This document shows positions 1-46,791 of a DNA stretch of 46,791 nt, piece by piece. The stretch comes from a virus. The translations under genes were made by a program, and so were the position numbers. Position 1 is the stretch's first letter; every line of letters begins with the position of its first letter. The stretch is taken from the IMG/VR virus record IMGVR_UViG_3300027742_000003. One strand, 5' to 3'. Under the pieces are notes generated by a model. That model did not search any database. It was not told the origin of the DNA and was given only the letters and a program-made list of their open reading frames with translations.

Positions 1-99
1 GGAAGTCTCGGTAGCATAGTGAAATACCTGAACGAGTCTTTTTAAAACAGAACGCTGGCGAGAATGCTACAACCTCCAAATCACCAGCCTTAATCTTAC
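1..99. repeat. 99-bp exact terminal direct repeat, copy 1 (identical to 46693-46791); most likely a circular-assembly overlap
   Basis: Read directly: ggaagtctcggtagcatagtgaaatacc...ccagccttaatcttac occurs verbatim at both ends. A minus-strand ORF reads continuously through the join. Confidence 0.95.
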
Positions 100-424
100 T
101 AAACGCATCCATCATGCTTGGGTATGTTGTTTCAAGGGATTCCATAATACGGCTAATAGACGCCGAAGAACTGCGGCGGTAACGTCCATCATTCATTGTA
201 ATGTTTCGTTCACGAAGCCCCTGTCTCCAATCTTCACGCATAGGCATTCTTGACAAGTACACACAACCGTCTGCATTGTTAGCGTAGCCAAGCTTAAAAC
301 CACGGATAGTAAACTCCTCAATAGGGGCTTCTATACGCTGGCTCTCTCTTGTCTCTGTAACAAGGATAATATTGTCATCAGAGCCAATAACATCAAGCAC
401 AATAACAGACTTCTCATTGTGCAT
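1..424 (-). CDS. hypothetical protein; 5' part of a 174-aa ORF split by the contig ends
   Basis: ATG at 424 (MHNEKSVIVLDVIGSDD...). The frame is open to position 1. Through the 99-bp overlap it continues to a TGA at 46592-46594. Confidence 0.6.
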   Translation of the reverse strand, partial: MHNEKSVIVLDVIGSDDNIILVTETRESQRIEAPIEEFTIRGFKLGYANNADGCVYLSRMPMREDWRQGLRERNITMNDGRYRRSSSASISRIMESLETTYPSMMDAFSKIKAGDLEVVAFSPAFCFKKTRSGISLCYRDF

Positions 425-464
425 AACAACAGTGCGCCTTAGTTTTTGATGTGCATATTCTAAA

Positions 465-1319
465 CTACCGTACATAAAAATTCTCCCCCACTGTTGGTGG
501 CAAGATAATGCCGCGAGTCTCAAGCCAGTTTAAAACACCGTGACGATTACCTTTAAAAATATCAGACAAAGATTTAGCTGAGTGAGATGCCTTGATTAAA
601 CTTGTATTACCCATAAGAAGTTTTGCAAAAGCGTTTTTTGTAGATTTAAACACCCAATCGATAAGCTTCTCATCTTTAAGCCAAGCATTAGATAAGACAC
701 GATACTCCATGCCATAAGGTTTTGGTCTAAAGCAGCCGAAATCCCCGTAAAGAGATTGTCTTTCAACATCATTATCATAAGACATAGCAGCTACGCCAAG
801 GTGGTAGTCTAATTGCATAGCTAACATACGACAATCATTAAAATGTTTTGTAGAGAATGGGTCGAAACCCTCCCCCCAACCTATGTGTACATGTCCTGCG
901 CCAGTTCTAAATGGTGTGTCTGCATTAGGTCGCGGATTTTCCTTACCTGTGTACGCATTGTAATCAGGCTCACAACCAAGCTCTCTTGCAGATGCAGGTT
1001 GCTTTGCAATAAGCTCAGCTCCAAAGTGTGCAGTTGGTACAGCACCGAGACGATAGTCGCCTATAATACCTTTTAATGTTGATAATACAGACTGTATGTT
1101 TGCATTAAACTGCTCAGGATTTTTAGCAGGGTCAATATTAAACTCTGCTGCCATGCCATCTAACTGTACAGCACCATTGTCCACCTTAAAAGGCTCTGCT
1201 TTTGTTCCCGGCACTAAACCAACAGCACTGATAGGATTTTCACCATCAAATACAAATACTTCTGGGTCAGCACCTAGTTGTAAGTTTTCTAATATAGAAT
1301 TTATGTCGAGCTTACTCAT
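465..1319 (-). CDS. carboxylate-amine ligase, phiEco32-like COOH-NH2 ligase type 2 family
   Basis: 284 aa with DPEVFVFD, MAAEFNI, GAGHVHIGWG and MEYRVLSNAW segments typical of this phage ligase family. ATGA start/stop overlap with the upstream amidotransferase. Confidence 0.8.
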   Translation of the reverse strand: MSKLDINSILENLQLGADPEVFVFDGENPISAVGLVPGTKAEPFKVDNGAVQLDGMAAEFNIDPAKNPEQFNANIQSVLSTLKGIIGDYRLGAVPTAHFGAELIAKQPASARELGCEPDYNAYTGKENPRPNADTPFRTGAGHVHIGWGEGFDPFSTKHFNDCRMLAMQLDYHLGVAAMSYDNDVERQSLYGDFGCFRPKPYGMEYRVLSNAWLKDEKLIDWVFKSTKNAFAKLLMGNTSLIKASHSAKSLSDIFKGNRHGVLNWLETRGIILPPTVGENFYVR

Positions 1320-2599
1320 AAATTATACCCCATGTTAATTAATGTTTGTCGTGTTTGAGCATCTTCAACACAACTGTTACAGAATTTATTTCCAACGGCA
1401 TCCTCAACAACCGTTTCAGGTGTGAGTGGGTCAGAACACCAAGAACAGTCACCCAAGTTTGTTGCAGGTTCACCTAAATCTTCGTCGCCAAGGTCTAACT
1501 CTTCTTCAACGATAGTGCGCCAATCAATAACTAGGTAAGGGTTGCCACTGTTGTAGCAAATCTTTTTAACCTCGCCAGTGAAGTAGTTGACGCTTTCAGC
1601 AAGAAGTGTTGCACAAGCAGCTTTCTTTTTGTTGCTCATTAAATCTTTCTGAGCCATATAGACACGAAGATTTGTACTAGAATCAACAAGTAAGCTACAG
1701 TCAAAGTATTCTTGACCATTATGAGCCTTACTGTATTGAGGTGTAGCATCAACAGCAAAAGTAACCTGCTTACCTTTTAGACTAAGCATGTTTTTAAACA
1801 CACGTTGACGTTCTTGTAGTGTGCTTTTGTCAGGGTTTAACGGAACAACTTTTTTATCCGCCTCAACCACCACTTTAGGAGAGGGTGTACGTACCATTTT
1901 AGTTCTTACAAACGAAACAGCTTCCCCCTTAGCCTTTGGCAACTGAATCTCATAATGCTCGCCAACATTTGTTATGTAAACTGTATTATGAGCAATACCA
2001 TTGCGCCATAAAGCGCCCTCAAGCATCCACCACTCAGATGCAAAGAACATTGTCTTGCCATCTTTAGAGAAACAATAACACATAGGGCGGTCTTCGTTTC
2101 TAAGTAGGTTTAAGGTGTTTTTAACATTATCAAGCCACACCAAAGACCAAGCATTTTGGACGCTAGAAGACATTTTATCAAACGTGTCTTGTAAACCAAG
2201 GTTGTTCATGTTGTGATAAAGATTTTCACTATCCACAGCAAAGTCTTTATAATCTAACAAAGAAGCTCTTGATTTGAGCGTACCATTATGGAATCCTAAC
2301 AAATTACCACATTCAAAAGGGTGGGCTGTGTTATTGTTAACCTTTCCAACTGTAGCGTAACGGTTATGGCCAATAAGACAATTGTTTGAATTATCGTTAA
2401 TAACCTCACCAGTAAGTTTTAACTCAAAGAAGTCACTTGGCAGCATTGCTCTTTTATGATGATTAAGCTCGCCAAACAGGTTTGAAGAAGCAACACCGAT
2501 AGAGTGAGCGCCACGAAGAATGTCCATATGAAGCATATCTTTAAAAGCCTTACGAGCCTTATAATCAATATCACCAACTACACCAACTATTCCACACAA
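1316..2599 (-). CDS. class II (Ntn) glutamine amidotransferase with a C-terminal extension ending in a CxxC...CxxC zinc-ribbon-like motif
   Basis: N-terminus M-CGIVGV (Cys2 nucleophile), HNRYAT, FHNGTL. C-terminus CSWCSD...CNSC. TTG start 8 nt after GGAGG. Confidence 0.85.
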   Translation of the reverse strand: MCGIVGVVGDIDYKARKAFKDMLHMDILRGAHSIGVASSNLFGELNHHKRAMLPSDFFELKLTGEVINDNSNNCLIGHNRYATVGKVNNNTAHPFECGNLLGFHNGTLKSRASLLDYKDFAVDSENLYHNMNNLGLQDTFDKMSSSVQNAWSLVWLDNVKNTLNLLRNEDRPMCYCFSKDGKTMFFASEWWMLEGALWRNGIAHNTVYITNVGEHYEIQLPKAKGEAVSFVRTKMVRTPSPKVVVEADKKVVPLNPDKSTLQERQRVFKNMLSLKGKQVTFAVDATPQYSKAHNGQEYFDCSLLVDSSTNLRVYMAQKDLMSNKKKAACATLLAESVNYFTGEVKKICYNSGNPYLVIDWRTIVEEELDLGDEDLGEPATNLGDCSWCSDPLTPETVVEDAVGNKFCNSCVEDAQTRQTLINMGYNL

Positions 2600-2659
2600 A
2601 ATAAACCTCCAAAATATTTTCTAAATAAAATTATTGTAAATCATCACCCTAAAACAAGG

Positions 2660-3727
2660 CTAAATACCAACTGGCTTAGTACCATTTCTTAAGTGCTTTT
2701 CAAACTGTATTAAGAATAGACAAAGTTTTTTAATATTCTCTTCTGAATAGTCAATAGAATCACCCTTACCAATACCCATGTACCTTTCAAAAGCCTTGTT
2801 AAATAGGTTACAGCCTTGCTCCTCTGTAGCACTTATGCTGTCAATAAATGATTTAACGTATGTCATGACATTAAACTTGGGATTATCAACATACCCACCC
2901 CAACCTTTTGAAACACTGCCAGAGATGAACCCACCAACCTTAGAGAAAGTGAGGATATTTGGCTCTTCGCGGTCGATAATCTTACGATAACTATTAATCT
3001 CAGTATACCTGTTAATGTAGTCTGACTTAGGTTGTTTTAACATACGACCTACACAAACAAACCTTGCTAATGTATCGCTATTTAACATGTTGTCTTGTGG
3101 TGCACTGTGCCCCCAAGAGCTGTATGCTTTTAGTGTGGTGTCTGACTGTTTTAAGAAGTATGTCATCTGCCACGCCATATTACCACTAACACCGCCATCA
3201 ACTAAATCACTAAACAACTTACAAAAATTTCTACACCAACTTTCCCAGATGTAACGAGTACACATAAGGGCTTCTGCCACAATACGGTTATCTAAGTCAG
3301 CACGTACTATAATCTGTCCAATCTTAATAGCCTTGTCAACACTTTTTACAACATAAGCTTCTTTGTAAGGGCTTTCATTAAATAGCCAATGATAATAGGC
3401 ATAAGCCTCTTTATGCAAACCAGTTTTCTTATTAAACATTTCTAATGTTCTTGTTGGCAATTCTGATGTAACGTATTCTATAACATCATCATCACCAAGT
3501 TTAAAGTCCAGTATTGGTGTTGGGAATATCGCACCAGCAGTACAACCAGTAGAGTTAGATACGTTAACAGTGAGCGGTGTTCTTTTACCCTTACTAACAA
3601 GGAATCGAAGCTTCATTAGATTAGACCCCCCATCTATGCGGTTATTCTTACCACTGTCCAATATGGAATCAATTGCCTTGCTCAATCTTTTATTAAGACC
3701 AAACTTATTACGTTTTTTAAAACTCAT
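2660..3727 (-). CDS. hypothetical protein (355 aa), immediately upstream of the amidotransferase on the minus strand
   Basis: Long ORF with GGAGGG 6 nt before the ATG. No motif recognised. Confidence 0.75.
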   Translation of the reverse strand: MSFKKRNKFGLNKRLSKAIDSILDSGKNNRIDGGSNLMKLRFLVSKGKRTPLTVNVSNSTGCTAGAIFPTPILDFKLGDDDVIEYVTSELPTRTLEMFNKKTGLHKEAYAYYHWLFNESPYKEAYVVKSVDKAIKIGQIIVRADLDNRIVAEALMCTRYIWESWCRNFCKLFSDLVDGGVSGNMAWQMTYFLKQSDTTLKAYSSWGHSAPQDNMLNSDTLARFVCVGRMLKQPKSDYINRYTEINSYRKIIDREEPNILTFSKVGGFISGSVSKGWGGYVDNPKFNVMTYVKSFIDSISATEEQGCNLFNKAFERYMGIGKGDSIDYSEENIKKLCLFLIQFEKHLRNGTKPVGI

Positions 3728-3903
3728 TGTAAGCCCTCCTAAGGCTGTTATTACTCTTACATATACATTGGTATTCTTTGCATATGTAAAAGCCCTGAGA
3801 ATGTGCCTCAGGAGCTTCTAAGCGTATTATTTAAACCAACCAAGCTCAATAGCTTTCTCAATACCTTTAATAACATCTAAGGCATGTTCCTTTGATACAA
3901 TCT

Positions 3904-4008
3904 TCAGTCTCTCCCCTCCCCAGCCCTCCCCTCAACACTGGCCCCAAAAACACGTATACGGTCTGGAGTAAGAGATTTATCTTTACGAATATTTATTTCA
4001 TTCGTCAT
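3904..4008 (-). CDS. possible 34-aa ORF ending inside a G-rich tract
   Basis: ATGA overlap with the stop of the upstream ORF (4005-4008). The -1 frame stays open for 28 more codons to a TAA at 3827. Confidence 0.25.
   Translation of the reverse strand: MTNEINIRKDKSLTPDRIRVFGASVEGRAGEGRD
3913..3945 (-). other. G-quadruplex-type tract on the minus strand that shares a 15-nt core with 8671-8687
   Basis: Minus strand reads GGGGccagtgttgaGGGGaGGGctGGGGaGGGGag. Shared core aGGGGaGGGc(a/t)GGGG. Confidence 0.7.
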
Positions 4009-4178
4009 AAGCACCTCTGAATATCTTCTATAATAAAGACATGCACAACTAGGCATACTGCAATTGCTACCGCCGAAAATGTAAACAAACCTATCTTATC
4101 CTCATACCAAGCCTTGATGCTAAGATAACAGCAAAATAGTTGAAACAGTAACATACAAAAAACTAATATAATTAACAC
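4005..4178 (-). CDS. small membrane protein (about 57 aa)
   Basis: GTG at 4178 lies 6 nt after GGGGGG. Hydrophobic LIILVFCMLLFQLFCCYL and FTFSAVAIAVCLVVHVFII. The longer track ORF (to 4232) would abut the tRNA. Confidence 0.45.
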   Translation of the reverse strand: MLIILVFCMLLFQLFCCYLSIKAWYEDKIGLFTFSAVAIAVCLVVHVFIIEDIQRCL

Positions 4179-4235
4179 AATAGACCCCCCTAAATATTTT
4201 CTAACATTAAATGATACAAACAAGCACCACAAAAC

Positions 4236-4312
4236 TGGCGCACCTAGTAGGATTCGAACCTACGACCTCCCCCTTAGGAGGGGGGCGCTCTATCCAACTG
4301 AGCTACAGGTGC
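4236..4312 (-). tRNA. tRNA-Arg (anticodon CCU)
   Basis: Canonical cloverleaf on the minus strand: GCACCTG / TA / GCTC-AGTTGGATA-GAGC / CCCCC-CTCCTAA-GGGGG / AGGTC / GTAGG-TTCGAAT-CCTAC / TAGGTGC-G-CCA. Confidence 0.92.
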
Positions 4313-6438: not shown

Positions 6439-6507
6439 TAAGTGTTTTTCCTTAGGTTAAATATTTTCTAGGTTAAATTGTTACAATGACGCACCACAAA
6501 ACTGTGG

Positions 6508-16023: not shown

Positions 16024-16096
16024 GGGTGTGGGACATTGGGTGTCAGTCAGATTCCAAACCTGTACTTGTGGGGTTCGAATCCTCACATGCCCGCCA
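16024..16096 (+). tRNA. tRNA-like gene, best read as tRNA-Trp (CCA), with non-canonical D and anticodon arms
   Basis: Acceptor GGGTGTG/CATGCCC, T arm TGGGG-TTCGAAT-CCTCA, encoded G-CCA end, loop TTCCAAA. The anticodon stem has only 3 WC pairs and the D loop is about 5 nt. Confidence 0.5.
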
Positions 16097-16102
16097 AACA
16101 AT

Positions 16103-16180
16103 CTCCGTGTAGTCTCAGTCTGGTAGAGATGCCGCTTTGGAAGCGGGCTGTCGTAGGTTCAAATCCTGCCTCGGAGACCA
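16103..16180 (+). tRNA. tRNA-Pro (UGG)
   Basis: CTCCGTG/CTCGGAG acceptor (one T-T mismatch), D arm TCTC-AGTCTGGTA-GAGA, GCCGC-TTTGGAA-GCGGG, T arm GTAGG-TTCAAAT-CCTGC, A-CCA. Confidence 0.75.
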
Positions 16181-27484: not shown

Positions 27485-29381
27485 TCTATTCAGCCCTGAA
27501 CTGGGCACAGTAAACTCATCTGTCACTCCAGCAGCACCTGTGAACAAAAGCGCTAACGTGCAACTGTTCGCAGATGTTCTTAATGTTGCCACAGAAGCCT
27601 CTTTTGCTTATGCTGGTCAACAGGAGCTTGACAGCCTTAAAAAGAAATTTAGTAATATTGCACAAGCTAGGATGCAGGGTGGTAAGTCTTCTGCCTTGCA
27701 AGCTAAGGCTAGGGCAGCATTAGATGAAGCTAAAGCTAATTCACCTTGGATAGCTAAGAAAGCTGACTCACTGTTCCAAACAAGTTTTGGTGGTGGTAGT
27801 GGTGGTGTGTTTGAGAAAACCCCACAAGAGAAAGCTGAGGAAGCTTACCAAGCCGATGTATCTGAGAAAGCTATTCGTCTTGGTGTTTCTAACGAAGAGG
27901 CTGCTAAACGTATTGCTATGGAAGAAAATGCAGCCAGTGCTAAGGTGTTGGCTGATTCTCAGAAAGATGTTAGGGAGTATAATGGTGAGCTTGTGTTTTC
28001 TAATACACAGGTTCAGGTGAACAATAAGAGTGTGCAGCTTATGGACGCCGCTAAGAGGGCTATGAAGAATGGTGGTGGGACAATATCACTTGACGACAAA
28101 CGTTCCTTAGAGTTCACTATAGACGCTACAGTGGCACAATTAAAAGGTGAGTTAGCCTCTCAAGTACGCGACCCTAACTCAGGGCATCTTCTTATTGGTA
28201 AAGCTGAGTATGATGATTCCTTATCTGAGATTGAAGAGTGGGCTGCAACAAGCAAGCAGCTTATTGGTGACAACTCTTACCTGAAAGTAATACAAGATGT
28301 TAACAGCTCTGACCAAGCTGAGATACAGGCTTTGGCCACTAGGGACTATAGGCTTATTAAGATTCTTAATGAGGCTGGTGGACAAGCTACAGTACAAGAC
28401 TTTATTGCTGCGGTAAATAGGAAAGAGGGTCAAGCTAAACAAAGCTTAATAAACAGAAACCCAATCCTTAAACAAGCGTTTAAACAACAAGGTAGCTTTA
28501 ACCAAGCCTCTAAGACAGCTCTTGATAAGATTATGGTTCCTAGTGATGATGCCTTTAGTCTTGTTGACAACGAGGCATACGCCTTAGGTACTGTAGTAAA
28601 TGACCCACGTAATAGTAGGCTTGCTCAGACAGTTGTAGAAAAGGCAGCTACTGAACCACAAGCACAGAAAGTTGTAGGGCAGATGGTACAGAAGAACCCT
28701 GATTCAGCAGCTATTGTGTGGAGTGATAGGTATAAAGCTTGGGCACAGGCTAATGAGGGTAAGGCTAAACGTGTTAATGAGACAGCTTTATCAGGTCTTA
28801 AGAAAGGTTTCTTGTCTACCTATGCGGCTGATAACCAAGCGCTTCCTACTGATTTCTCAATAGGCTCTGCGCCAGCCCCAACAAGTAGGCTTGCAAGTAG
28901 CAAACAACGAGCGCCAAAACCAAACACTATTACTGGTGATGGCATGACCCCTGAGTCTGCTGTATTCTTACGTAATATGTTAGCTGTTTATTCGTTTAAT
29001 CCTAAGGAGCTTGAAAAGGTACGTAGTGAATCTGGTGTTTCTGACATGACACCACAAGAAGCTGTTCCGTATTTTGTGTTAGGTAAATTGCCCGAAAGAT
29101 TTTCTAACAATAATTCAGACAAACCAGACCCACAAACCAAGCCAGAGGTTGACGGCTTTACTGGGGCTTCTGTAACAACTGATGAAGAAGTTTCTGCAAG
29201 TGGTGAGCCTGATGCACCAGCACCAGTAGGCCCTGCTATGAAGCGCTTTATTAGTAAGGCTAAGGAGCTTAATTGGTCTGAGAGTGATGTTGATTCCTTT
29301 GTTAAGGATTTAGGTCTTGCAGATAATGCACAAACAAAATCTATTAGCGAGCAGATTAAAAACAACATGAGGGATAATTAA
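27474..29381 (+). CDS. internal virion protein (635 aa)
   Basis: TTG start 8 nt after GAGGA, Ala/Gln/Lys-rich. Confidence 0.6.
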   Translation: MAGNLFSPELGTVNSSVTPAAPVNKSANVQLFADVLNVATEASFAYAGQQELDSLKKKFSNIAQARMQGGKSSALQAKARAALDEAKANSPWIAKKADSLFQTSFGGGSGGVFEKTPQEKAEEAYQADVSEKAIRLGVSNEEAAKRIAMEENAASAKVLADSQKDVREYNGELVFSNTQVQVNNKSVQLMDAAKRAMKNGGGTISLDDKRSLEFTIDATVAQLKGELASQVRDPNSGHLLIGKAEYDDSLSEIEEWAATSKQLIGDNSYLKVIQDVNSSDQAEIQALATRDYRLIKILNEAGGQATVQDFIAAVNRKEGQAKQSLINRNPILKQAFKQQGSFNQASKTALDKIMVPSDDAFSLVDNEAYALGTVVNDPRNSRLAQTVVEKAATEPQAQKVVGQMVQKNPDSAAIVWSDRYKAWAQANEGKAKRVNETALSGLKKGFLSTYAADNQALPTDFSIGSAPAPTSRLASSKQRAPKPNTITGDGMTPESAVFLRNMLAVYSFNPKELEKVRSESGVSDMTPQEAVPYFVLGKLPERFSNNNSDKPDPQTKPEVDGFTGASVTTDEEVSASGEPDAPAPVGPAMKRFISKAKELNWSESDVDSFVKDLGLADNAQTKSISEQIKNNMRDN

Positions 29382-37445: not shown

Positions 37446-37659
37446 TACTATCTAAGATTTGTTCTGCCTTAAGGTTCTCCTCAATGCGTTCCAGTTTCTC
37501 TTTAGCACAAGATGCCTCCACCTTTTTAATACCAGAGATAACATCATGATTAACCTTTAACCTTGCACCAAGAGCCTTAACATAGCTTTGGTCAAGTTCG
37601 TCCCTTTCTTTTCTATACTTTTTAGTTAGCCCATCCACATTACTAGTGAATATCTGCAT
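37432..37659 (-). CDS. hypothetical coiled-coil protein
   Basis: ATG at 37659 overlaps the polymerase 3' end by 17 nt. Confidence 0.5.
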   Translation of the reverse strand: MQIFTSNVDGLTKKYRKERDELDQSYVKALGARLKVNHDVISGIKKVEASCAKEKLERIEENLKAEQILDSIANG

Positions 37660-39529
37660 AACTCTCGCCAAATTGAACATCAATATCTAACTCCCGATTC
37701 ATTTTAAGTTTATCATTAACACGTTTGATTGCATCTTTAAATGCAGCTACACACTTCTCTTGCCTACCCTTTTTAATAAGGGCAATAACTTCGTCGTGCA
37801 TTTGACCTATAAGGGGGATACCCTTGGCCTTAAGTTCCATAACCCACATATCAAAACAGTATACACCACTACCCTGATTAAGCGTAGAGAACCTGTCCTT
37901 GTCACTACGTAAGCTATACCAAAATCCACTAATAGGGTTCTTAAGCCACTTCTGACCTGAGAACGTCCTAACAACCTGCTCCTCAGCAATCACCTTAACA
38001 GACCAATTACGCTGCCAGTATATCTCATTAAGAGCTTTCGCCTGAGATAGAGGCATCCCTGTTTCACGAGCCAATCCCTCTGGCCCTTGTCCATAAACAC
38101 CTCCGTAGTTAACTGGCTTAGCTGTCTTACGACCAGCTTTGATAATCTTCTTATCTTCGGAGTCTATGAAATCACCCGTCTTGTGTCTTGCTTCTTGCTC
38201 TGGTGTAAGATAGCCAGCTAGTACAGCAATATCAACATGAGGACAATACCCCTCTTCAAGCATGGTTTCAACATACTCAGGGTCATGCTCCCACATAAAG
38301 TGCTGCTTAGTTCTGTCTTCTAGTGCCGCCATATCAGAGCCACAAAGCTCATAACCATCTGGCGCTATTAAACAACCCCTTAGTTCCTCACCGTAAGGTT
38401 TATCAACTCCGGGAAGATTAACAACTACCCGATGCTTAAACCTTAGCGTATTGGTAAATCCTTGTATCCTAGCTTGTACAAATCCGTTGCTATCCATGTT
38501 TTCTAAGAAGCCACTAACTACATCTAGTCTGTGCTTAATAACACCAACTTCTTTAAGGAATATTACAGACGGCTCTACCTCACATAGCCTCTCAACGCTT
38601 GGTGTAAGTTCTGGCTCATTGTCATCATTCTTTCTACGTACTTGTGGTATTTGGCGTAAGTCGCCTGTATCTTTATTACGTTTGAATTTGAATGTACAAG
38701 GAACCCAACCCAACCCTGCTAACCACGCCTTAATCTGCGGGTCTGAGGCTGCATTTGGCTCATTATAAGAAGATATGTAAGACATTTCCTCAGTGTCTTC
38801 TGGTAAACCATGCTCCTTAAGAAGAGCAAACCATTTCTCACCTAATGCACTTAACGTACTATCTTGCTTATAACATTTCTTAGGTTTTGTCTTAGTGGTA
38901 TAGACAGCCACCTTAGGCATCACTTCCTCAAGCTTAGCAACAGCATTATCATGCAGCGCTGTTAACCTCTCTTTAAGTTCCTTTGCCTTAGGTACATTTA
39001 GCTTCCAACCTCTTGCCTCTTGCTCCCTAGCACACTGCATTTTAAACATGAGGTAATCAATCAACTTCCAAGCTTCTTCCTCAGTTTCATACATCCTAAG
39101 TAGTTTAGCCCATTGTTTTTCCCAAAGGGTGGTATTGATTTTCACGTCTTCTTTACAGCGGTGCTTGTACTCATCAGGAGATAACCCCTCCCAATCAGTA
39201 ACCTTTGGCTTAGGAACTCCGAAGTCAACACCGTAGTCTTCAAGCCCGTGTGTTAACCTTGTTGGTTCCAAATACCAAGACAGTGCTAAGGTATCTACTA
39301 GCTTTGCTTTTATCTTAATGCCAAGCATTTTCTCAACAGCAGGTATGTCAAACCTGTAAATGTTGTGCCCAACAAGAAGCGTAGCATTGCTAAAGTAGTT
39401 CCTCATCATGTCATAAGAACAGGTTGCTCCAAGTTTCTTGCCGTTGTCTACTGCTATACAGTGGATTTTAGTGTAATCAAAGCCATCAGTTTCAATATCA
39501 AATACATCACCTGACGCTTTTCTTTTCAT
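37643..39529 (-). CDS. DNA polymerase, family A, with a 3'-5' exonuclease domain
   Basis: VFDIETDG (Exo I), RKTAKPVNYGGVYGQG (motif B), GQMHDEVI (motif C). Confidence 0.93.
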   Translation of the reverse strand: MKRKASGDVFDIETDGFDYTKIHCIAVDNGKKLGATCSYDMMRNYFSNATLLVGHNIYRFDIPAVEKMLGIKIKAKLVDTLALSWYLEPTRLTHGLEDYGVDFGVPKPKVTDWEGLSPDEYKHRCKEDVKINTTLWEKQWAKLLRMYETEEEAWKLIDYLMFKMQCAREQEARGWKLNVPKAKELKERLTALHDNAVAKLEEVMPKVAVYTTKTKPKKCYKQDSTLSALGEKWFALLKEHGLPEDTEEMSYISSYNEPNAASDPQIKAWLAGLGWVPCTFKFKRNKDTGDLRQIPQVRRKNDDNEPELTPSVERLCEVEPSVIFLKEVGVIKHRLDVVSGFLENMDSNGFVQARIQGFTNTLRFKHRVVVNLPGVDKPYGEELRGCLIAPDGYELCGSDMAALEDRTKQHFMWEHDPEYVETMLEEGYCPHVDIAVLAGYLTPEQEARHKTGDFIDSEDKKIIKAGRKTAKPVNYGGVYGQGPEGLARETGMPLSQAKALNEIYWQRNWSVKVIAEEQVVRTFSGQKWLKNPISGFWYSLRSDKDRFSTLNQGSGVYCFDMWVMELKAKGIPLIGQMHDEVIALIKKGRQEKCVAAFKDAIKRVNDKLKMNRELDIDVQFGESYADIH

Positions 39530-40020
39530 TAATCCTCCTCATCAAACAGGTTAGACATTTCTGCCTTAAACACATTGACAATGTAGTTAATACGCTTACT
39601 GTTAGTGTCAAGTATGCACATTATCTCTCTTGGTTTGTATTGCTCAATGAAGTATAAGTGTAAGATTGTTCTATCATCACCAGACTTGTCAGCAATAGCT
39701 TCTTTAATCCTGTTAATAGTATCTTCACTTGTTTGAGACATCTCATTTGTCTCAGCTAACTCCTCATCAAACTCTACGTAAGTACCACAAGAACGTTCAT
39801 CACGCTTAAAACTTTTTAGCGTATTGTTCATGATAGTATTAAACCAAGCACCTAACTCTTGGCGCTCAGGGTCGAAGCTAGAAATATACCTGAGGGCACG
39901 CTCAAAGGACTCTTGTAAAATGTCCTCAGCGTTCTCTGGTGTACCAGCTCGATTAGCCAGCTTCTTTAGCAGCAGCTTACGCTCACTGACGTAGAAGTCT
40001 TCTATTTGTTGAAATGACAA
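39529..40020 (-). CDS. ECF-type sigma-70 family sigma factor
   Basis: Region 2: AEDILQESFERALRYISSFDPERQELGAWFNTIMNNTLKSFKRDE. Region 4: DRTILHLYFIEQYKPREIMCILDTNSKRINYIV. TTG start 6 nt after GAGGAG. TAATG overlap with the polymerase. Confidence 0.85.
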   Translation of the reverse strand: MSFQQIEDFYVSERKLLLKKLANRAGTPENAEDILQESFERALRYISSFDPERQELGAWFNTIMNNTLKSFKRDERSCGTYVEFDEELAETNEMSQTSEDTINRIKEAIADKSGDDRTILHLYFIEQYKPREIMCILDTNSKRINYIVNVFKAEMSNLFDEED

Positions 40021-40212: not shown

Positions 40213-40374
40213 TTAACAACTACCGTCACAAGGAGCGTCCAAACATGTATTACACATGATAGGGCTATACCCACATATTTCTGCTGAGTACCCGCCATAG
40301 GTAAGTGCCCCACAATCAGGACACTCTCCCTCTTCACCATCACAAGGTTGACCACTTTGATTATCACAACACAT
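40213..40374 (-). CDS. Cys-rich small protein (53 aa, 10 Cys), probably zinc-binding
   Basis: Translated by hand: MCCDNQSGQPCDGEEGECPDCGALTYGGYSAEICGYSPIMCNTCLDAPCDGSC. GGAGGG 7 nt upstream. Below the ORF-track cutoff. Confidence 0.55.
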   Translation of the reverse strand: MCCDNQSGQPCDGEEGECPDCGALTYGGYSAEICGYSPIMCNTCLDAPCDGSC

Positions 40375-40376
40375 AA

Positions 40377-40550
40377 TTATACCCTCCCAGTCCTGATTTT
40401 AAAATCCTCAATAACTTTTATAACATAATACTCAGATACACCCAAATCTCTGGCTATGTAGTCTGTACTATACCCCCTGTAGTAAATAGATACAATACCC
40501 TTGTCAAGGTCGTCACAACTAAACTTACCAACAGCCCTAAAAGTATCCAT
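40377..40550 (-). CDS. small HTH protein (57 aa)
   Basis: Translated by hand: MDTFRAVGKFSCDDLDKGIVSIYYRGYSTDYIARDLGVSEYYVIKVIEDFKIRTGRV. TAATG overlap with the primase stop. Confidence 0.55.
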   Translation of the reverse strand: MDTFRAVGKFSCDDLDKGIVSIYYRGYSTDYIARDLGVSEYYVIKVIEDFKIRTGRV

Positions 40551-42208
40551 TATGCCTCCGTAAATAAATGGTTAGTTTTATTCCAATACAGTGGTACTGT
40601 ACCGCCCTCACCAAACTCCCTGTCTGCAAGAACAACAAGCTTACGCATGTTACGTTCCTCAGCAGTTAGCTCTGGGTCTTTATTACCCTCAAGACCAATC
40701 GCATAGTTGCATGAACGAGCCATTGCACTACTACCTGCGAAGTAATCTGTGGTAATCTTACCACCCCTGTCCCAAGGTGTTGCACCCTTAGCTGGTTTGT
40801 TTAGGTGACAAAAGAAGAAGATAGCTATATCTAAATCCATTGCCATTGCAGCAGCCTCCTGAGCCACGCCCTTAAGATGTGAGTCAATATCGCTATTACT
40901 CATGCCGTTTGTCAGGTTGGTGATTGGGTCGATAAACACAACCTTAACACCAGCCGCAGCAGCAGCACGTATATCTAGCTTAAGAGTCTCCCAACCTATG
41001 TGCTGATAAAGGTTAAGCATACAGATGCGGTCTGCAACTTCCTGACCAGCTTTCTCATAAGCTTCCTCATCAAAAGCAACCTTAGGGTCATGGAACACCT
41101 TACCACAAACCTTAGACAACACCATTTTATAGGTTTTGTTATTGGCCTCTTCTGGCTTAGCAAACATACAAGGCAGGTTATGCTCTTTCATGAACCAAGC
41201 GCCAAGAGCGTTAACTATCTCACTCTTACCCATCTTCTCACCAGCGGCTATATAGTATGTCTCACCAAACCTCAAACCACGGGTGATAGCTGTAAGACCA
41301 TCCCAAGGGAACGACAAGCCCCACTCAGCAGGTTTCTTAGCCTCTTCATGAACATCCTTACCCCATACAAGTCGAGTGTTCTTAGGCTTCTTAGCCTTAA
41401 ACATAACAGCTTTGAATGCAGCTTTAGCACAACCTTTCAACAAACAATCATTAGCATCCTTTTCAGGGAGCGTAATAACCCTTGCATCAGGGAACACCTT
41501 GATACAATCATCAGTAGCTTTCTTACCAGCGTCATCATTATCAAAACAGAAATCAACCTGTTTGAAGTGCTTACGTATTTTACTAGCAAGCCTTGATAAG
41601 TCACGATAAGCTGATGCTGCGCCATGAGGCAAACTACATACAGCAGGAGCGTAGTCCTTATACTTCTCGTCTTGGAACCTGTCTATGATTTGCTTAAGTG
41701 ATGGGGCATCTAACTCACCCTCAACAATAATAAGCCTATCAGAGCCAGACTGTATTGCTTGCTCCCAACCAAATAAATCAACGTCTGATTGGTCGCCTGT
41801 AGACCATATACGCTTACCCTCAACTAACCTAGTTTTGTAAGATTTAAGTTCGCCATCAAGCTTATAAGGATAATGGTGGAATGCGACAGTCTTGCCGTCC
41901 TCCTCACTAAACCCAATCTTAATGCCGTAATAGTCCAAAGACTTACTGCCTAGCTTTCTATCTGGCAAGTTGACTACGCCTAACGTATTAATAAATGCTA
42001 TGCGTTCTTCAACTTCCTCAGGTGTTAAGCCAGTACGTTCTTTCTTAGGAATGTCCTCATACTTACGTTCATCACCAAATGGGTGCCTTACATATGTGTT
42101 ACAGGAGTAACAATAGCCATCCACACCCCCATCTTCTCTGGCAAACACTTGTAAGCCTTGACGACTACCACAAGCTTCATGCCTAACTTTTTGAATACAT
42201 TGACCTAT
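40550..42208 (-). CDS. bifunctional primase-helicase (T7 gp4-like); the 5' end is probably upstream of the track start (42148)
   Basis: TOPRIM IIVEGELDAPS, Walker A AAGEKMGKSE. The zinc motif HEACGSRQGLQVF..DGYCYSC begins upstream of GTG 42148. The only candidates there are ATA 42208 and ATT 42196. Confidence 0.85.
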   Translation of the reverse strand: MGQCIQKVRHEACGSRQGLQVFAREDGGVDGYCYSCNTYVRHPFGDERKYEDIPKKERTGLTPEEVEERIAFINTLGVVNLPDRKLGSKSLDYYGIKIGFSEEDGKTVAFHHYPYKLDGELKSYKTRLVEGKRIWSTGDQSDVDLFGWEQAIQSGSDRLIIVEGELDAPSLKQIIDRFQDEKYKDYAPAVCSLPHGAASAYRDLSRLASKIRKHFKQVDFCFDNDDAGKKATDDCIKVFPDARVITLPEKDANDCLLKGCAKAAFKAVMFKAKKPKNTRLVWGKDVHEEAKKPAEWGLSFPWDGLTAITRGLRFGETYYIAAGEKMGKSEIVNALGAWFMKEHNLPCMFAKPEEANNKTYKMVLSKVCGKVFHDPKVAFDEEAYEKAGQEVADRICMLNLYQHIGWETLKLDIRAAAAAGVKVVFIDPITNLTNGMSNSDIDSHLKGVAQEAAAMAMDLDIAIFFFCHLNKPAKGATPWDRGGKITTDYFAGSSAMARSCNYAIGLEGNKDPELTAEERNMRKLVVLADREFGEGGTVPLYWNKTNHLFTEA

Positions 42209-42372
42209 AACACACCCCCTTTGTTTTCTATGATAAATATTGTAATAGTACCAATAATATTAAACAACATCATAATGGCAAATATGCCAAGCTTGCGCTT
42301 ATACACACTTATAATACCAACACAACAACAGAAAAGTTGAAATAATAAAATGTAAAACAAGAAAACTAACAC
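42205..42372 (-). CDS. small two-TM membrane protein (55 aa)
   Basis: GTG 6 nt after GGAGG. MLVFLFYILLFQLFCCCVGII...MMLFNIIGTITIFII. Confidence 0.45.
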   Translation of the reverse strand: MLVFLFYILLFQLFCCCVGIISVYKRKLGIFAIMMLFNIIGTITIFIIENKGGVL

Positions 42373-42424
42373 AATTAACCTCCAAATTATTTTCTAATAA
42401 AAATTACAGCAAATGAGTACCACA

Positions 42425-42550
42425 TTACTCCACCATAAAAGCCAGCACAGTGTTGATGACGGCACACAGTATTGCCAACTCCATATTACCCTTACGTGCA
42501 AAGTGTATTAGAAAGCCTAACACAATAAGCATAACTATAATAATTGACAT
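42425..42550 (-). CDS. small membrane protein (41 aa)
   Basis: ATG after GGAG. MSIIIVMLIVLGFLIHF... Confidence 0.4.
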   Translation of the reverse strand: MSIIIVMLIVLGFLIHFARKGNMELAILCAVINTVLAFMVE

Positions 42551-43592: not shown

Positions 43593-43988
43593 TCACTCTT
43601 TGGTTTTGTACTTGAACCAATCCCCATCCTTGACAGGCATTGTCTTATCTTCGTCGATATGGTATATCCAAGCACGAACCGTCTCACCACTATCATCAAG
43701 TACAACATCCACCTGACTCCTATTATAAAAAGTTGGGTAGCCCTCTAAGCCATCAAGAGGCCCTGTAAGACCTTGCTCATCAGTGCGGTACACTTCTACT
43801 ACTAAGGGTGTTTCATGGCTGCTGTGTTCCAATGAGACGCTAGGAAACGCACCTAAGGAGTACATGTTGTAGTTGTTTACAGTTTTACCTGTATCAACCA
43901 GCTCAGCATTAGCAAGACCAATAACATGGTGATTACCTAAGCCCTGTCTTAAGCTACCGTACACAGCTACAAGAATATCTTTATCCAC
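43593..43988 (-). CDS. gamma-glutamyl cyclotransferase-like (AIG2/GGCT fold) protein
   Basis: N-terminal VAVYGSLRQGLGNHHVI signature. Confidence 0.7.
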   Translation of the reverse strand: MDKDILVAVYGSLRQGLGNHHVIGLANAELVDTGKTVNNYNMYSLGAFPSVSLEHSSHETPLVVEVYRTDEQGLTGPLDGLEGYPTFYNRSQVDVVLDDSGETVRAWIYHIDEDKTMPVKDGDWFKYKTKE

Positions 43989-44473
43989 TACTTCTCTCCT
44001 AGGGGCTTACAATAAACAGTTTCATAATTAAACAAACCTAATTGGTCTGCTAGCTTAGCATGATTAACAGCGTTCTTAAACGTCACCATCATATGAGAAG
44101 CGCCACGCTTAGTAACATACTCCTCAGCCTTGCTTAATAATGTACGACCAACGCCAGTACCACGGGCGCTTTGAACTACGTAGATAGTGTCCGTAAGGGC
44201 AGTAAGCTCCCCAGTGTGCATTGATGGGCACAAGAACATTGACACATAGCCAAGTATGTCTTCTTGATTACCCTCTTCATCATATTGAATAGCAAGCAAC
44301 CAGAAGTGCATACGATTATCGTCTGCTGCCTTATAAGATTGCCACTGAACATTAAGCTCAGAAGTTTTACGTCTATCGTCTACCTCATCCCACTGATTAA
44401 GAAGAAGTTCATTAAAGCGTGCATTCTTCTCAAGCTCAGATGACTCAACAAATTGATATTTTAAATTACTCAT
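43988..44473 (-). CDS. GNAT-family N-acetyltransferase
   Basis: VVQSARGTGVGRTLLSKAEEYVTKRG (motif A, Q/RxxGxG). Confidence 0.75.
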   Translation of the reverse strand: MSNLKYQFVESSELEKNARFNELLLNQWDEVDDRRKTSELNVQWQSYKAADDNRMHFWLLAIQYDEEGNQEDILGYVSMFLCPSMHTGELTALTDTIYVVQSARGTGVGRTLLSKAEEYVTKRGASHMMVTFKNAVNHAKLADQLGLFNYETVYCKPLGEK

Positions 44474-44930
44474 TACGGAGTTCCTTAAGTTGACCTTGTG
44501 CTTCTTTAAGCTGTTCTTCAAGCTTGTTAACAAGGCACTCTAACTTGTCTTCTTTAGGACAAGGTTCTGGTTTAATACGGTATTCAAAATCTTTATCAAA
44601 TGTAGGCAACATCGTTACCCCCTTATCGTGACAATTTTTAACTGTCAGCCACTTCCCTATAGAGTCTTTAACCTGAATAACCTTACCTTGCATCCAAGCA
44701 ATAACAATATCGTAATGCTTGTAGTAGTTTGAGGTGTCTTCCTCTACAAGAGAAAACCTTTCTTTTGACCAATTATAGTGTAATCCCGACAGCTTCATGT
44801 TGAGGGTTCCCACTATATCAACAACAGTAAACACCTCCCCAGACATAAACCGTCTAGCTATATCTGGCTCAACACAGCTCAAATCCATATCTGTTCTTCG
44901 AACCTTATCACCAACTTTAAAATCACTCAT
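44466..44930 (-). CDS. hypothetical protein (154 aa) inside the ligase operon
   Basis: ATG 6 nt after GGAG, overlapping the ATP-grasp stop. Confidence 0.6.
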   Translation of the reverse strand: MSDFKVGDKVRRTDMDLSCVEPDIARRFMSGEVFTVVDIVGTLNMKLSGLHYNWSKERFSLVEEDTSNYYKHYDIVIAWMQGKVIQVKDSIGKWLTVKNCHDKGVTMLPTFDKDFEYRIKPEPCPKEDKLECLVNKLEEQLKEAQGQLKELRNE

Positions 44931-45720
44931 CACCATCTCCAAACATTGTTTTAAAGCGCTCAGCATAGCCAGTTAAGGTAGAGCCTGTTAAGCCGGGTGC
45001 TGTATTAATTTCCAATACAATTGCATACTCATTGTGCTCGTTATAGATGATGTCAACAGCACCAAAGTCAAGGTTAATAGCTTGAACAGCACGTACTGCT
45101 TGCTCTAACACTTGGTGTGGTGGCTCAACACCCTCATTACGAGCATAGATAAAGCCGTTGTCATGGTTACGTACAAGCCAATTGACCTGCTCATTTGGAA
45201 CACTACGGTCACGAGCCTTACGCTGTACATCCACAACTTCACCATTAAGTACGTGAATACGCCATTCAGACTTCTTCTTAACATACATTACGTACAGTGG
45301 ACAATCTTCTAAAACATCTTCACCAGTTTTAATCTTAATACCAGCGCCAGAGTGCCCGCTTAATTCATGACGTTCAACAACAGTACGCCCTAAGTACAAC
45401 CAACGTTGAGCTTCTCGCTTATCTTTAGTGTGCTGAGGAACCGCTACAGCTTCATCGTGACCGCAATAATTGTTGTATTCTAAAATACTGTCAAAGAATG
45501 CCAGCTTATTAGCTGCAACAGCAACGGCACTAGGCGTATTAATAACGCGACAACTATTAACTTCATCAGGTAGCTTAGTACAACCCCAATTAATAACCGT
45601 CTTTTCTTCATCCCCTGCAAAGCGGCTAGCAGAGCGTCTAATACGTTTTGCATCTAACTCCTCCGATAAAGCCTTAACAGACTTACTTCCAGCTTTGTAT
45701 GGATATATAAATAAAGACAT
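44923..45720 (-). CDS. ATP-grasp ligase (RimK-like, phage type)
   Basis: 265 aa with ...HSGAGIKI..., WRIHVLNGEVV and AIVLEINTAPGL. Confidence 0.8.
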   Translation of the reverse strand: MSLFIYPYKAGSKSVKALSEELDAKRIRRSASRFAGDEEKTVINWGCTKLPDEVNSCRVINTPSAVAVAANKLAFFDSILEYNNYCGHDEAVAVPQHTKDKREAQRWLYLGRTVVERHELSGHSGAGIKIKTGEDVLEDCPLYVMYVKKKSEWRIHVLNGEVVDVQRKARDRSVPNEQVNWLVRNHDNGFIYARNEGVEPPHQVLEQAVRAVQAINLDFGAVDIIYNEHNEYAIVLEINTAPGLTGSTLTGYAERFKTMFGDGDE

Positions 45721-46595
45721 TAGAAATCCTCCATAGGCTCATCAGGCCATTCAATATTAGATGGGAAAGATAACCCACCAATAACTTGTTCATTAAAGCT
45801 GTTCCAATCAACAGCGTGTGCAATAGGTAGTGCATACTCAAGACCAACCTCAAGCTCTGCAACTATATTAACATCATTAAGAAGTTCACCAGCACAATCA
45901 CCAAGCATCTTGTAAACAAAAGACTCAGGAGCTTCCAGTGCCATACTTACTACATCAAGTGGTGACTCAAACGTTTGTGCTTGTTCACGCATGTTGTACA
46001 ACACATTACACCACACCTTAAGAACTTCAAAGTCTGCTGTGCTTCGCATTGCTCGGTACTCAAGAGAGCCATACTTACTCAAAGAGTTTAGGTTTAAGGC
46101 TGAATAACGTATCATACTAGAGGCAAGTGGTCTTAGACTACCCTTTACTATAGACTCTTCAAGAACTTTTGCTTGGTAGTCTGCATCACAAACACGTAAG
46201 CAGAATAGGTTGCCCTCTCTATAAGCCCCACAATAACGTGTTAAGATTGTTTCAAGCAAGTATGTAGACAAGATTAAGTTATACATATGCACAACGTTAA
46301 GCTCTTGAACATTAACATGAACATGCACACCTGCTCTTGGTGTCTCGTAGTAAGCAGAGTTTGACAAAGCTTCCTTAAGGTTGTTTAAGCAAGTGACTGT
46401 CTCATCAAGTGAGCGTGGTTCTCGCATAACATACTCATTAGACTCACCTCTAAGACTGTGGTCAATCTCAGTACGCCAATCATCATTATCAAAGTTTGGC
46501 AGGTTCTCACCCTCAACCTCTACCTCTACACCTAATGCACCAGCCTTAAGCTTGTGGTTGGGCATGTTTAGTTTCTGTGCCACCGTTGGTATCAT
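45720..46595 (-). CDS. Amidoligase_2-like carboxylate-amine ligase (GCS2 / glutamine-synthetase-like fold)
   Basis: GVEVEVEG..., RGESNEYV, AGVHVHVN, GSLEYRAM. Confidence 0.75.
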   Translation of the reverse strand: MIPTVAQKLNMPNHKLKAGALGVEVEVEGENLPNFDNDDWRTEIDHSLRGESNEYVMREPRSLDETVTCLNNLKEALSNSAYYETPRAGVHVHVNVQELNVVHMYNLILSTYLLETILTRYCGAYREGNLFCLRVCDADYQAKVLEESIVKGSLRPLASSMIRYSALNLNSLSKYGSLEYRAMRSTADFEVLKVWCNVLYNMREQAQTFESPLDVVSMALEAPESFVYKMLGDCAGELLNDVNIVAELEVGLEYALPIAHAVDWNSFNEQVIGGLSFPSNIEWPDEPMEDF

Positions 46596-46791
46596 GCGGC
46601 CCCCTGTTCAAGCTTCTTAATAAACATATTTAGGAAAGAGAACTTATCAGACAGCTTATAAGAGCCATCGTCATTAACCTCACCAATCTTACGGAAGTCT
46701 CGGTAGCATAGTGAAATACCTGAACGAGTCTTTTTAAAACAGAACGCTGGCGAGAATGCTACAACCTCCAAATCACCAGCCTTAATCTTAC
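46592..46791 (-). CDS. 3' part of the 174-aa junction-spanning ORF (see 1-424)
   Basis: ...SYKLSDKFSFLNMFIKKLEQGAA-TGA, with an ATGA overlap with the amidoligase start. Confidence 0.6.
   Translation of the reverse strand, partial: KIKAGDLEVVAFSPAFCFKKTRSGISLCYRDFRKIGEVNDDGSYKLSDKFSFLNMFIKKLEQGAA
46693..46791. repeat. 99-bp exact terminal direct repeat, copy 2
   Basis: Identical to positions 1-99. Confidence 0.95.

Follow-up and report, generated by a model that had tools for sequence, protein, structure and literature searches.

A cassette of phage genes that combines carboxylate-amine ligases with a class II glutaminase is already known from phiEco32, LUZ24, PA11, CW02 and RIO-1, and was described in 2009 and 2013 (Iyer et al., 2009; Hardies et al., 2013; both as cited in PMC5498523 and PMC10580990). 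Under the name "peptidoglycan modification cassette" (Duhaime et al., 2017) it is conserved in RIO-1, phiEco32, 7-11, PA11, tf, LUZ24, PaP3 and CW02 (PMC5498523). Later genome papers list its genes or restate what was predicted in 2009, that it modifies the cell wall and excludes superinfecting phages (e.g., PMC10580990), and a role in nitrogen metabolism has been speculated for Phage-ZRK32 (PMC10945688); no experimental test of the function of the cassette turned up in the searchable literature. Pfam family PF14395 bears the name "Phage phiEco32-like COOH.NH2 ligase-type 2", and PHROGs families cover every enzyme of the cassette. Here we describe the form of this cassette found in IMG/VR virus record IMGVR_UViG_3300027742_000003, a stretch of 46,791 nucleotides (nt) that was analyzed at its full length and is referred to below as the window. 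We favor, with a probability of roughly 0.55, the reading that positions 1–3727 hold the upstream half of a cassette that is conserved and specific to phages, and that makes and edits unusual amide bonds of the gamma-glutamyl type.

With the cassettes of phiEco32, LUZ24/tf/PaP3, PA11/O4, CW02, RIO-1 and HP1 that of the window shares the COOH-NH2 ligase (PF14395), Amidoligase_2 (PF12224), an R2K ATP-grasp ligase, the class II glutaminase and a gamma-glutamylamine cyclotransferase (GGACT), and its gene order is that seen in members of the Zobellviridae, upstream of genes for a primase-helicase, a sigma factor and a DNA polymerase. It differs from them in lacking Peptidase_C26, a class I glutaminase, as well as the small open reading frame (ORF) that follows it in three PA11/O4-group records (gp57 in O4), and in possessing a gene for a GNAT acetyltransferase.

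Gene order and continuity across the contig ends

On the minus strand the genes are arranged in the order U (a protein of 355 amino acids, aa), glutaminase, COOH-NH2 ligase, J (encoded across the two ends of the contig), Amidoligase_2, R2K ATP-grasp, a protein of 156–166 aa, GNAT and GGACT (Pfam E 1.5e-20), with the genes of the primase-helicase, sigma factor and DNA polymerase downstream (Table 1). An ATP-grasp, two glutamine-synthetase-like ligases and a class II glutaminase are thereby co-located in the early/replication arm of a circular, Zobellviridae-like podophage genome. The five genes from glutaminase to R2K ATP-grasp are translationally coupled, successive genes overlapping by 4, 11, 4 and 1 nt, and U lies just upstream of them. 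A first-pass annotation of the window, made from the sequence alone, had named a phiEco32-type ligase and a class II amidotransferase here beside two further ligases, and these calls were confirmed by profile searches (glutaminase, GATase_6 of Pfam, E 9.6e-13; COOH-NH2 ligase, phrog_3815, E 1.8e-81), the three ligases that adjoin the glutaminase being the COOH-NH2 ligase, Amidoligase_2 and the R2K ATP-grasp. The ATGA overlap reported between glutaminase and COOH-NH2 ligase is indeed present at 1319–1316 and supports co-translation of the two in this genome. The proposal of a single operon may need changing for U: a repeated promoter-like or terminator-like element lies between the U and glutaminase genes, and U may be a separate transcription unit.

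That the contig is circular and the cassette crosses its ends, as had been supposed, is borne out by the exact repetition of bases 1–99 at 46693–46791 and by two further assemblies of the same genome. ENA contig k141_1092548 (46,833 bp) and Logan contig SRR1313318_11939 (46,722 bp) both hold the junction region internally, and match the circularized junction at 100% identity without gaps over 12,000 and 11,320 nt, respectively. The genome ends therefore join without gain or loss of sequence, and the 99-bp overlap is an artefact of assembly. The genome, circular or circularly permuted, has a unique sequence of 46,692 bp. The two other contigs exceed this length by 141 and 30 bp; as the overlaps thus differ between the three assemblies (99, 141 and 30 bp), they point to assembler word size, which is probably their simplest source, and not to biology. 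Collinearity over the junction is also seen in two related contigs that are 93–94% identical (L006, L007) and in diverged relatives (77–94% identical), five of which keep the contiguous gene order and a J protein of 191 aa. It is highly improbable that the repeat is a true terminal repeat of a linear genome, such as the 186-bp direct repeats of the related podophage tf (PMC3517423), or a chimeric join that makes an artefact of the junction ORF, and this reading was rejected given the different start points and overlaps of the three assemblies and the contiguity of the junction in independent assemblies and relatives.

Once one copy of the repeat is removed, a minus-strand ORF runs from the left end of the contig into the right end. 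The first-pass annotation was right that this ORF is real, but its length of 174 aa, from ATG 424–422, has to be revised: an upstream ATG at 475–473, preceded by GGGGAG, gives 191 aa. J homologs measure 185–191 aa, the closest of those compared (P0128, 191 aa) being 97% identical at 100% coverage; gene callers return 191 aa on independent contigs, and the additional N-terminal residues align with 40 relatives. The linear ORF list contains only a spurious 59-aa fragment at this place (46592–46771), so that linear annotation splits the operon and loses the J gene, as had been foreseen.

The composition of the cassette was followed in 87 phage loci, comprising 80 IMG/VR loci found with the glutaminase profile and 7 others, in which the families were counted with iterated family profiles; gaps in these counts fall mostly at contig ends. 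The COOH-NH2 ligase and J were present in 87/87 loci, Amidoligase_2 in 85, the R2K ATP-grasp in 81, U in 76, Peptidase_C26 in 72 and GGCT in 18, and the dominant order was U, C26, (ATP-grasp), glutaminase, ligase, J, Amidoligase_2, ATP-grasp. Co-occurrence with the ligases, raised as a point to check at first pass, holds without exception in these loci for J and in most of them for U, which is always upstream; both are true members of the cassette. Peptidase_C26 lies between U and the class II glutaminase in relatives (e.g., L001, L002 and most of L008–L087) and is absent from the whole window genome, whose lineage has GGACT and GNAT downstream, the latter found in only 5 of the 87 loci. The order of the cassette genes matches that in Pseudomonas phage O4 (genus Paundecimvirus, family Zobellviridae) and in the oyster phage PQ867842, and the primase-helicase, sigma factor and cassette proteins are 30–60% identical to those of O4 and an oyster-associated Zobellviridae phage, with order kept. 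In distant variants the glutaminase can lie after Amidoligase_2 (ligase, J, Amidoligase_2, glutaminase, ATP-grasp), the ligase–J–Amidoligase_2 trio remaining intact. A minimal variant (L120, L121, L126, L128, L129) was also observed; it consists of the COOH-NH2 ligase, two Peptidase_C26 and GGCT, without J, Amidoligase_2 or the class II glutaminase.

Glutaminase and COOH-NH2 ligase each match 319 of 50,697 GenBank phage records, phiEco32 included, with near-identical organism counts. The COOH-NH2 ligase gave only 52 matches in 185,579 representative genomes of bacteria and archaea, nearly all on metagenome-bin contigs of 45–50 kb that carry the cassette, which suggests phage genomes binned with bacteria. 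Of these 52 matches (L088–L139), roughly half are on contigs of 40–55 kb which, although assigned to bacteria as diverse as Saccharibacteria, Flavobacteriia, Cellvibrionaceae and cyanobacteria, resemble complete phage genomes. Judged from these sequence matches, the cassette families are essentially phage-only.

Table 1. Coordinates of the cassette genes, protein domains and sequence elements in the window
Feature	Position	Strand	Remarks
First copy of 99-bp terminal overlap	1..99	.	Exact repeat; carried once, internally, in other assemblies
J, N-terminal 158 codons	1..475	-	ATG 475–473, GGGGAG ribosome-binding site; 11-nt overlap with ligase stop
COOH-NH2 ligase, phiEco32-type, type 2 (PF14395), 284 aa	465..1319	-	D18, E20, H143, H145, E205, R207 invariant
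Glutaminase: predicted acidic four-cysteine zinc ribbon, terminal helices, stop	1316..1453	-	C385, C388, C407, C410
Glutaminase: predicted helix and OB-fold barrel, residues ~259–366	1502..1825	-	Models with pLDDT 87 and 90; top PDB matches are OB folds
Class II N-terminal nucleophile (Ntn) glutaminase domain, residues ~1–235 of 427-aa protein	1895..2599	-	TTG start; Cys2, R80, N105, G106, D123
47-nt element, one copy	2611..2657	-	Small hairpin, then TTTACA-like and TTAGAAAATATTT motifs; directly upstream of glutaminase ribosome-binding site
U, 355 aa	2660..3727	-	Cassette-linked family; Cys62 invariant, WLxNxSPY, RxxWE, GH, C-terminal NPF
Terminator-like hairpin	3793..3813	-	8-bp stem, then CTTTT; ~65 nt upstream of U gene
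Accessory genes: 156–166-aa protein, GNAT acetyltransferase, GGACT (43593–43988)	43593..44966	-	ORF list, Pfam, PHROG
R2K-clade RimK-like ATP-grasp ligase, 265 aa	44923..45720	-	Pfam, PHROG, NCBIfam
Amidoligase_2 (PF12224), second glutamine-synthetase-like ligase, 291 aa	45720..46595	-	30.4 bits against cut-off of 22
J, C-terminal part and stop codon	46592..46692	-	Stop overlaps Amidoligase_2 start by 4 nt
Second copy of 99-bp terminal overlap	46693..46791	.	Exact repeat

The proteins of the cassette

The glutaminase gene (2599–1316, minus strand, 427 aa) begins with TTG at 2599 behind a GGAGG ribosome-binding site. The assignment of Cys2 as its nucleophile was upheld, as the TTG directly precedes a TGT (Cys) codon and C2 is nearly invariant among 40 homologs (down to 29% identity), whose N-terminus reads MCG(I/L)VG. 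Other residues invariant or nearly invariant in the same alignment are R29, G30, R80 (in GHNRxAT), N105/G106 (HNG), D123 (DSE) and, towards the C-terminus, C385, C388, C407 and C410. The motifs GHNRYAT and HNGTL align to GHVRYPT and HNGNL of PurF, in which we take R73, N101/G102 and D127 to be the equivalent glutamine-binding residues. From this pattern the protein is predicted to keep all the residues with which class II amidotransferases bind glutamine and carry out catalysis; the conserved residues cannot separate free glutamine from a gamma-glutamyl amide as substrate.

When the glutaminase profile was searched against PDB sequences, the match was limited to the first 115–190 positions and led to PurF, GlmS and AsnB. 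In an AlphaFold model of the full-length protein (pLDDT 87.4) the N-terminal domain has the four-layer alpha-beta-beta-alpha Ntn fold, and superposes on the glutaminase domains of GlmS (Foldseek, 1xff, E 4e-12, target-normalized TM 0.71) and PurF and on EgtC (E 7.9e-10, TM ~0.72). All NCBIfam scores are below the respective cut-offs (purF 39.4 against 350, glmS 29.5 against 418, EgtC 20.2 against 218.65), and its sequence places the protein within the class II superfamily and outside the purF, glmS and EgtC enzyme families. PurF and GlmS, and also AsnB and GltS, share with it the N-terminal Cys, the Arg, Asn-Gly and Asp set and the Ntn fold; however, PurF and GlmS have a fused synthase domain where the phage glutaminase is predicted to have an OB fold and a zinc ribbon, which would allow ammonia transfer only in trans.

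The C-terminal extension of approximately 200 aa had been described at first pass as ending in CSWCSD...CNSC and as foreign to standard architectures. The motif is present, formed by the four cysteines named above, and the extension is absent from PurF, GlmS and AsnB. It is also conserved, the four cysteines being invariant in the 40 homologs, and a C-terminal CxxC...CxxC was found in 77/84 full-length proteins of the phage loci and in 23/35 of those on distant binned contigs. Residues 236–427 gave no PDB sequence match, and six tails scanned against Pfam at E <= 10 yielded noise only. With the whole glutaminase as query, the fold matches came mainly from the N-terminal domain and told nothing about the tail, which was re-predicted alone. 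The resulting model (pLDDT 90) runs, from N- to C-terminus, through a helix, three strands, a helical hairpin, two long strands and an acidic linker, followed by two short hairpins with the CxxC pairs and then two helices. DSSP assignments, numbered from residue 258 (E21-33, E39-46, E53-57, H60-78, E82-93, E96-101), give the five strands of an OB fold with a helix between strands 3 and 4. In place of a fused synthase or acceptor domain, residues 236–427 are thus modeled as an OB fold and a zinc ribbon; short strands flank each CxxC knuckle and zinc binding is predicted.

The top 50 matches of the tail in the PDB are mostly OB-fold proteins, with significance at the level of the fold only (E of at least 9e-3), and include SSB, PriB, PrgE, Teb1, the anticodon-binding domains of AsnRS and AspRS, toxin B subunits and the OB-plus-zinc domain of MCM10. 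The MCM10-ID, SSB and PriB folds have the same topology of beta1–3, helix and beta4–5, then a zinc-binding element, and are matched with Foldseek probabilities of 0.84–0.98, a likeness again of fold only (10–15% identity); unlike these, the phage tail is acidic and not basic. Among viral proteins it is closest in fold to the tails of other phage glutaminases, encoded by Cronobacter phage GAP52, Salinivibrio phage CW02 and Aeromonas phage LAh_9. Mean net charge is -1.1 for the OB domain, -3.6 for the linker and -3.8 for the ribbon, whose isoelectric point (pI) is typically ~4–5. This acidity favors docking on a protein over nucleic-acid binding, and suggests that the tail is a protein-docking module. 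A role of the tail as a LysW-like carrier was considered and dropped because its C-terminus is not conserved.

Taken alone, the COOH-NH2 ligase scores 22.9 bits against PF14395, below the gathering score of 25 bits; the family is matched by 39/39 aligned relatives (best E 1.3e-13), and the protein is 31.6% identical to its phiEco32 counterpart (tblastn, E 4e-30). The six residues given in Table 1 are invariant over 39 sequences, and the acidic, HxH and ExR positions among them presumably correspond to the catalytic residues of glutamine-synthetase/GCS2-type carboxylate-amine ligases. In Amidoligase_2 the invariant residues are E24, E26 and E28 (E-x-E-x-E), H91, H93, E179 and R181. Profile searches of the PDB with these two ligases found no solved relative, and a profile-profile comparison of one with the other aligned only a 16-column RTxGHVH stretch, at a probability of 0.6%. 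The R2K ATP-grasp scores 30.0 bits against PF18299 (R2K_2, cut-off 26.2) and 21 against RimK (cut-off 21), matches phrog_2599 with E 1.3e-86, and has MptN as its best NCBIfam model; it is an ATP-grasp of the RimK/MptN alpha-L-glutamate-ligase type. Compared with RimK, MptN and LysX themselves, it matches R2K_2, RimK and MptN but stays far below the cut-offs (28 against 143 bits for rimK_fam), and a LysW-like carrier whose C-terminal Glu is conserved was not found.

U belongs to a family of ~297 clusters at 50% identity, typically ~290 aa long, and its invariant Cys lies in a motif that is usually CHAGL; the pattern of conservation looks enzymatic. In J, compared over 40 relatives, G63 and R76 are invariant and a motif LGyvN...R.P.R..W.QGL is shared; the alignment contains no conserved Cys, His or Asp set. 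Searches of Pfam, NCBIfam, PADLOC and PDB sequences with U and J, as single sequences and as profiles of 41–48 relatives, gave nothing credible. The sole PDB match, a designed pentatricopeptide repeat reached via a short repeated motif, was judged spurious. Profile-profile comparisons found no relationship of J with either glutamine-synthetase-like ligase, or of U with J; U, like J, has no match to the ligases.

Possible functions of the cassette

In the general picture that we hold to be slightly better than an even bet, the three ATP-dependent carboxylate-amine ligases would act in sequence and build a short amide-linked product on an acceptor, while the glutaminase would act in trans, most likely supplying glutamine-derived ammonia to one of them. 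The acidic OB/zinc-ribbon tail would dock the glutaminase on the ligase–J core or on the target. J, which is always found between the two glutamine-synthetase-like ligases, would be a non-catalytic adaptor or substrate-presenting subunit, and GNAT and GGACT in the window lineage, or Peptidase_C26 in most relatives, would cap or recycle gamma-glutamyl intermediates. That a ligase would receive ammonia in this way is a plausible reading, one among others. Candidates for the acceptor are peptidoglycan precursors, as guessed in published work, small molecules, and proteins of the host or the phage.

A number of observations weigh against this picture. To our knowledge, those class II glutaminase-fold proteins that stand free and have been characterized, EgtC among them, act as hydrolases and do not donate ammonia, and the fit of EgtC to the glutaminase model comes close to that of GlmS and PurF. 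As the adjacency of glutaminase and COOH-NH2 ligase is not universal, the ATGA overlap cannot identify the ligase as the partner, and no partner can be named. The ribbon is lacking in about one third of the distant cassette variants, the roles proposed for J and U rest on gene position, neither having a family match, and no product, acceptor or protein complex has been reported in the searchable literature or was observed here.

It is possible, at odds clearly short of even, that the glutaminase-fold protein hydrolyzes gamma-glutamyl amides as EgtC does, and removes a gamma-glutamyl group which one of the glutamine-synthetase-like ligases had put on as a carrier or protecting group, with the tail holding the substrate. 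The retrieval of EgtC, a free-standing Ntn hydrolase, in the fold search speaks for this, as do the absence of a synthase domain from the protein and the presence of other gamma-glutamyl-cleaving enzymes in the cassette (GGACT here, Peptidase_C26 in relatives). A GCS-like ligase and an Ntn hydrolase are also paired in ergothioneine synthesis, where EgtA is likewise a GCS-type gamma-glutamyl ligase and EgtC a free-standing class II Ntn protein. However, EgtC is only ~14–15% identical to the phage glutaminase and has no OB/zinc tail, and the cassette has no counterparts of EgtB and EgtD. The sequence of the phage protein is nearer to PurF and GlmS than to EgtC (NCBIfam, 39 and 38 bits against 20), its Pfam match is GATase_6 and not the YafJ/EgtC-type family, and the conserved residues are neutral between glutamine and a gamma-glutamyl amide.

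The published reading (PMC5498523 and PMC10580990, citing Iyer et al., 2009 and Hardies et al., 2013), in which the cassette remodels peptidoglycan stem peptides or cytoplasmic precursors by amidation or added amino acids, so that the surface is altered and superinfecting phages are excluded, appears doubtful to us. Gamma-glutamyl and D-iso-glutamate chemistry would fit it. There is also a precedent in MurT/GatD, in which an ATP-dependent ligase together with a separate glutaminase delivers ammonia to a carboxylate and amidates lipid II; GatD, though, is a class I glutaminase and MurT a Mur ligase, and no sequence relationship to the cassette proteins was detected. The peptidoglycan reading is inferential throughout, Pfam and NCBIfam searches with the cassette proteins revealed neither a Mur-ligase nor a cell-wall-binding domain, and within the window the cassette shows no link to lysis or envelope genes and adjoins replication genes instead.

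More tentatively still, the cassette may encode a new trans-acting amidotransferase machine, in which a class II glutaminase with a docking module plugs into the ligase–J–ligase core and ammonia would be channeled into a stepwise, phage-specific amide-linked product or protein tag needed early in infection. All characterized ammonia-donating class II amidotransferases that we know of are fused in cis to a synthase domain, and one that acts in trans through a docking domain of its own would, if true, be a new architecture.

It seems improbable that the OB/zinc-ribbon tail binds single-stranded DNA, tRNA or mRNA and that the cassette modifies nucleic acids or substrates resembling aminoacyl-tRNA, as would be the case in DNA hypermodification or tRNA-dependent amidation. 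The best PDB matches of the tail do include SSBs, MCM10, PriB and the anticodon-binding domains of AsnRS and AspRS, and the cassette adjoins replication genes and a tRNA gene; but these fold matches are weak and have toxin B subunits among them, the acidic charge of all three parts of the tail is unlike that of typical nucleic-acid binders, and the conserved core holds no enzyme of base modification or nucleotide metabolism. Least probable as a function is that these are auxiliary metabolic genes boosting host nitrogen, glutamate or glutathione-type metabolism, as proposed for Phage-ZRK32, a carrier of the same ligase (PMC10945688), for the essentially phage-restricted distribution (the 52 matches above), scores far below every cellular equivalog cut-off of NCBIfam, and the membership of the cassette-specific J and U do not make the pattern of a host-derived metabolic gene.

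Neighboring elements and implications

The element between the U and glutaminase genes is one of five minus-strand copies of a 47-nt sequence (2611–2657, 4191–4237, 6458–6504, 29094–29140 and 42384–42430) with the consensus aGTTTTGTGGTGc, N4, TTTGTA, ~9 nt, TTAGAAAATATTT; its 13-mer core has 5 matches where 0.3 are expected by chance. Four copies precede a ribosome-binding site and start codon by 1–8 nt, those of the glutaminase included. The 5' half could fold into a small hairpin with a T-rich run behind it. RNA folding of the element gave z-scores near zero, which are not significant, and no claim of a structured RNA is made. Going by its sequence, the element may be a terminator-promoter cassette or a phage sigma factor site. 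Upstream of U, the ligase cassette may begin a new transcription unit at the terminator-like hairpin listed in Table 1.

Two small hydrophobic ORFs, at 4005–4232 (75 aa) and 42205–42372 (55 aa) on the minus strand, lie directly downstream of two of the 47-nt copies, and their shared LLFQLFCC suggests that they are paralogous small membrane proteins. The sigma-70-family factor (Sigma70_r2; 39529–40020, minus strand) is 56% identical to the O4 sigma factor and is flanked by genes for a family A DNA polymerase (37643–39529) and a T7 gp4-like primase-helicase (40550–42148). Between the primase-helicase and sigma factor genes there is a 53-aa ORF (40213–40374, minus strand) with 10 cysteines (MCCDNQSGQPCDGEEGECPDCG...CNTCLDAPCDGSC), which was also called as a gene in an independent assembly (L140). 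The window contains three tRNA genes: tRNA-Arg(CCT) (4236–4312, minus strand), just upstream of the cassette as in O4, and tRNA-Trp(CCA) (16024–16096) and tRNA-Pro(TGG) (16103–16180), both on the plus strand in the structural arm.

The cassette has been recognized since 2009, and the window leaves the question of its function as it was but sharpens it. What is documented here is the predicted OB/zinc-ribbon tail of the glutaminase and its conservation, the invariant ligase–J–ligase core, the phage-only distribution, and a variant of the cassette in the window lineage that lacks C26 and bears GNAT. A practical lesson is that linear annotation of the contig loses J, a universally conserved cassette gene.

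Carriers of the cassette include the therapy-relevant PA11-like and LUZ24-like phages of Pseudomonas, phiEco32-like phages of E. coli and many marine phage genomes, and its function is better pursued in culturable carriers than via this contig. For such relatives, the ligase–J–ligase core, the membership of J and U, and an apparently catalytically intact glutaminase with a tail that replaces the synthase domain provide concrete constructs and partners. That the families are essentially confined to phages argues against a simple role of the cassette in host metabolism.

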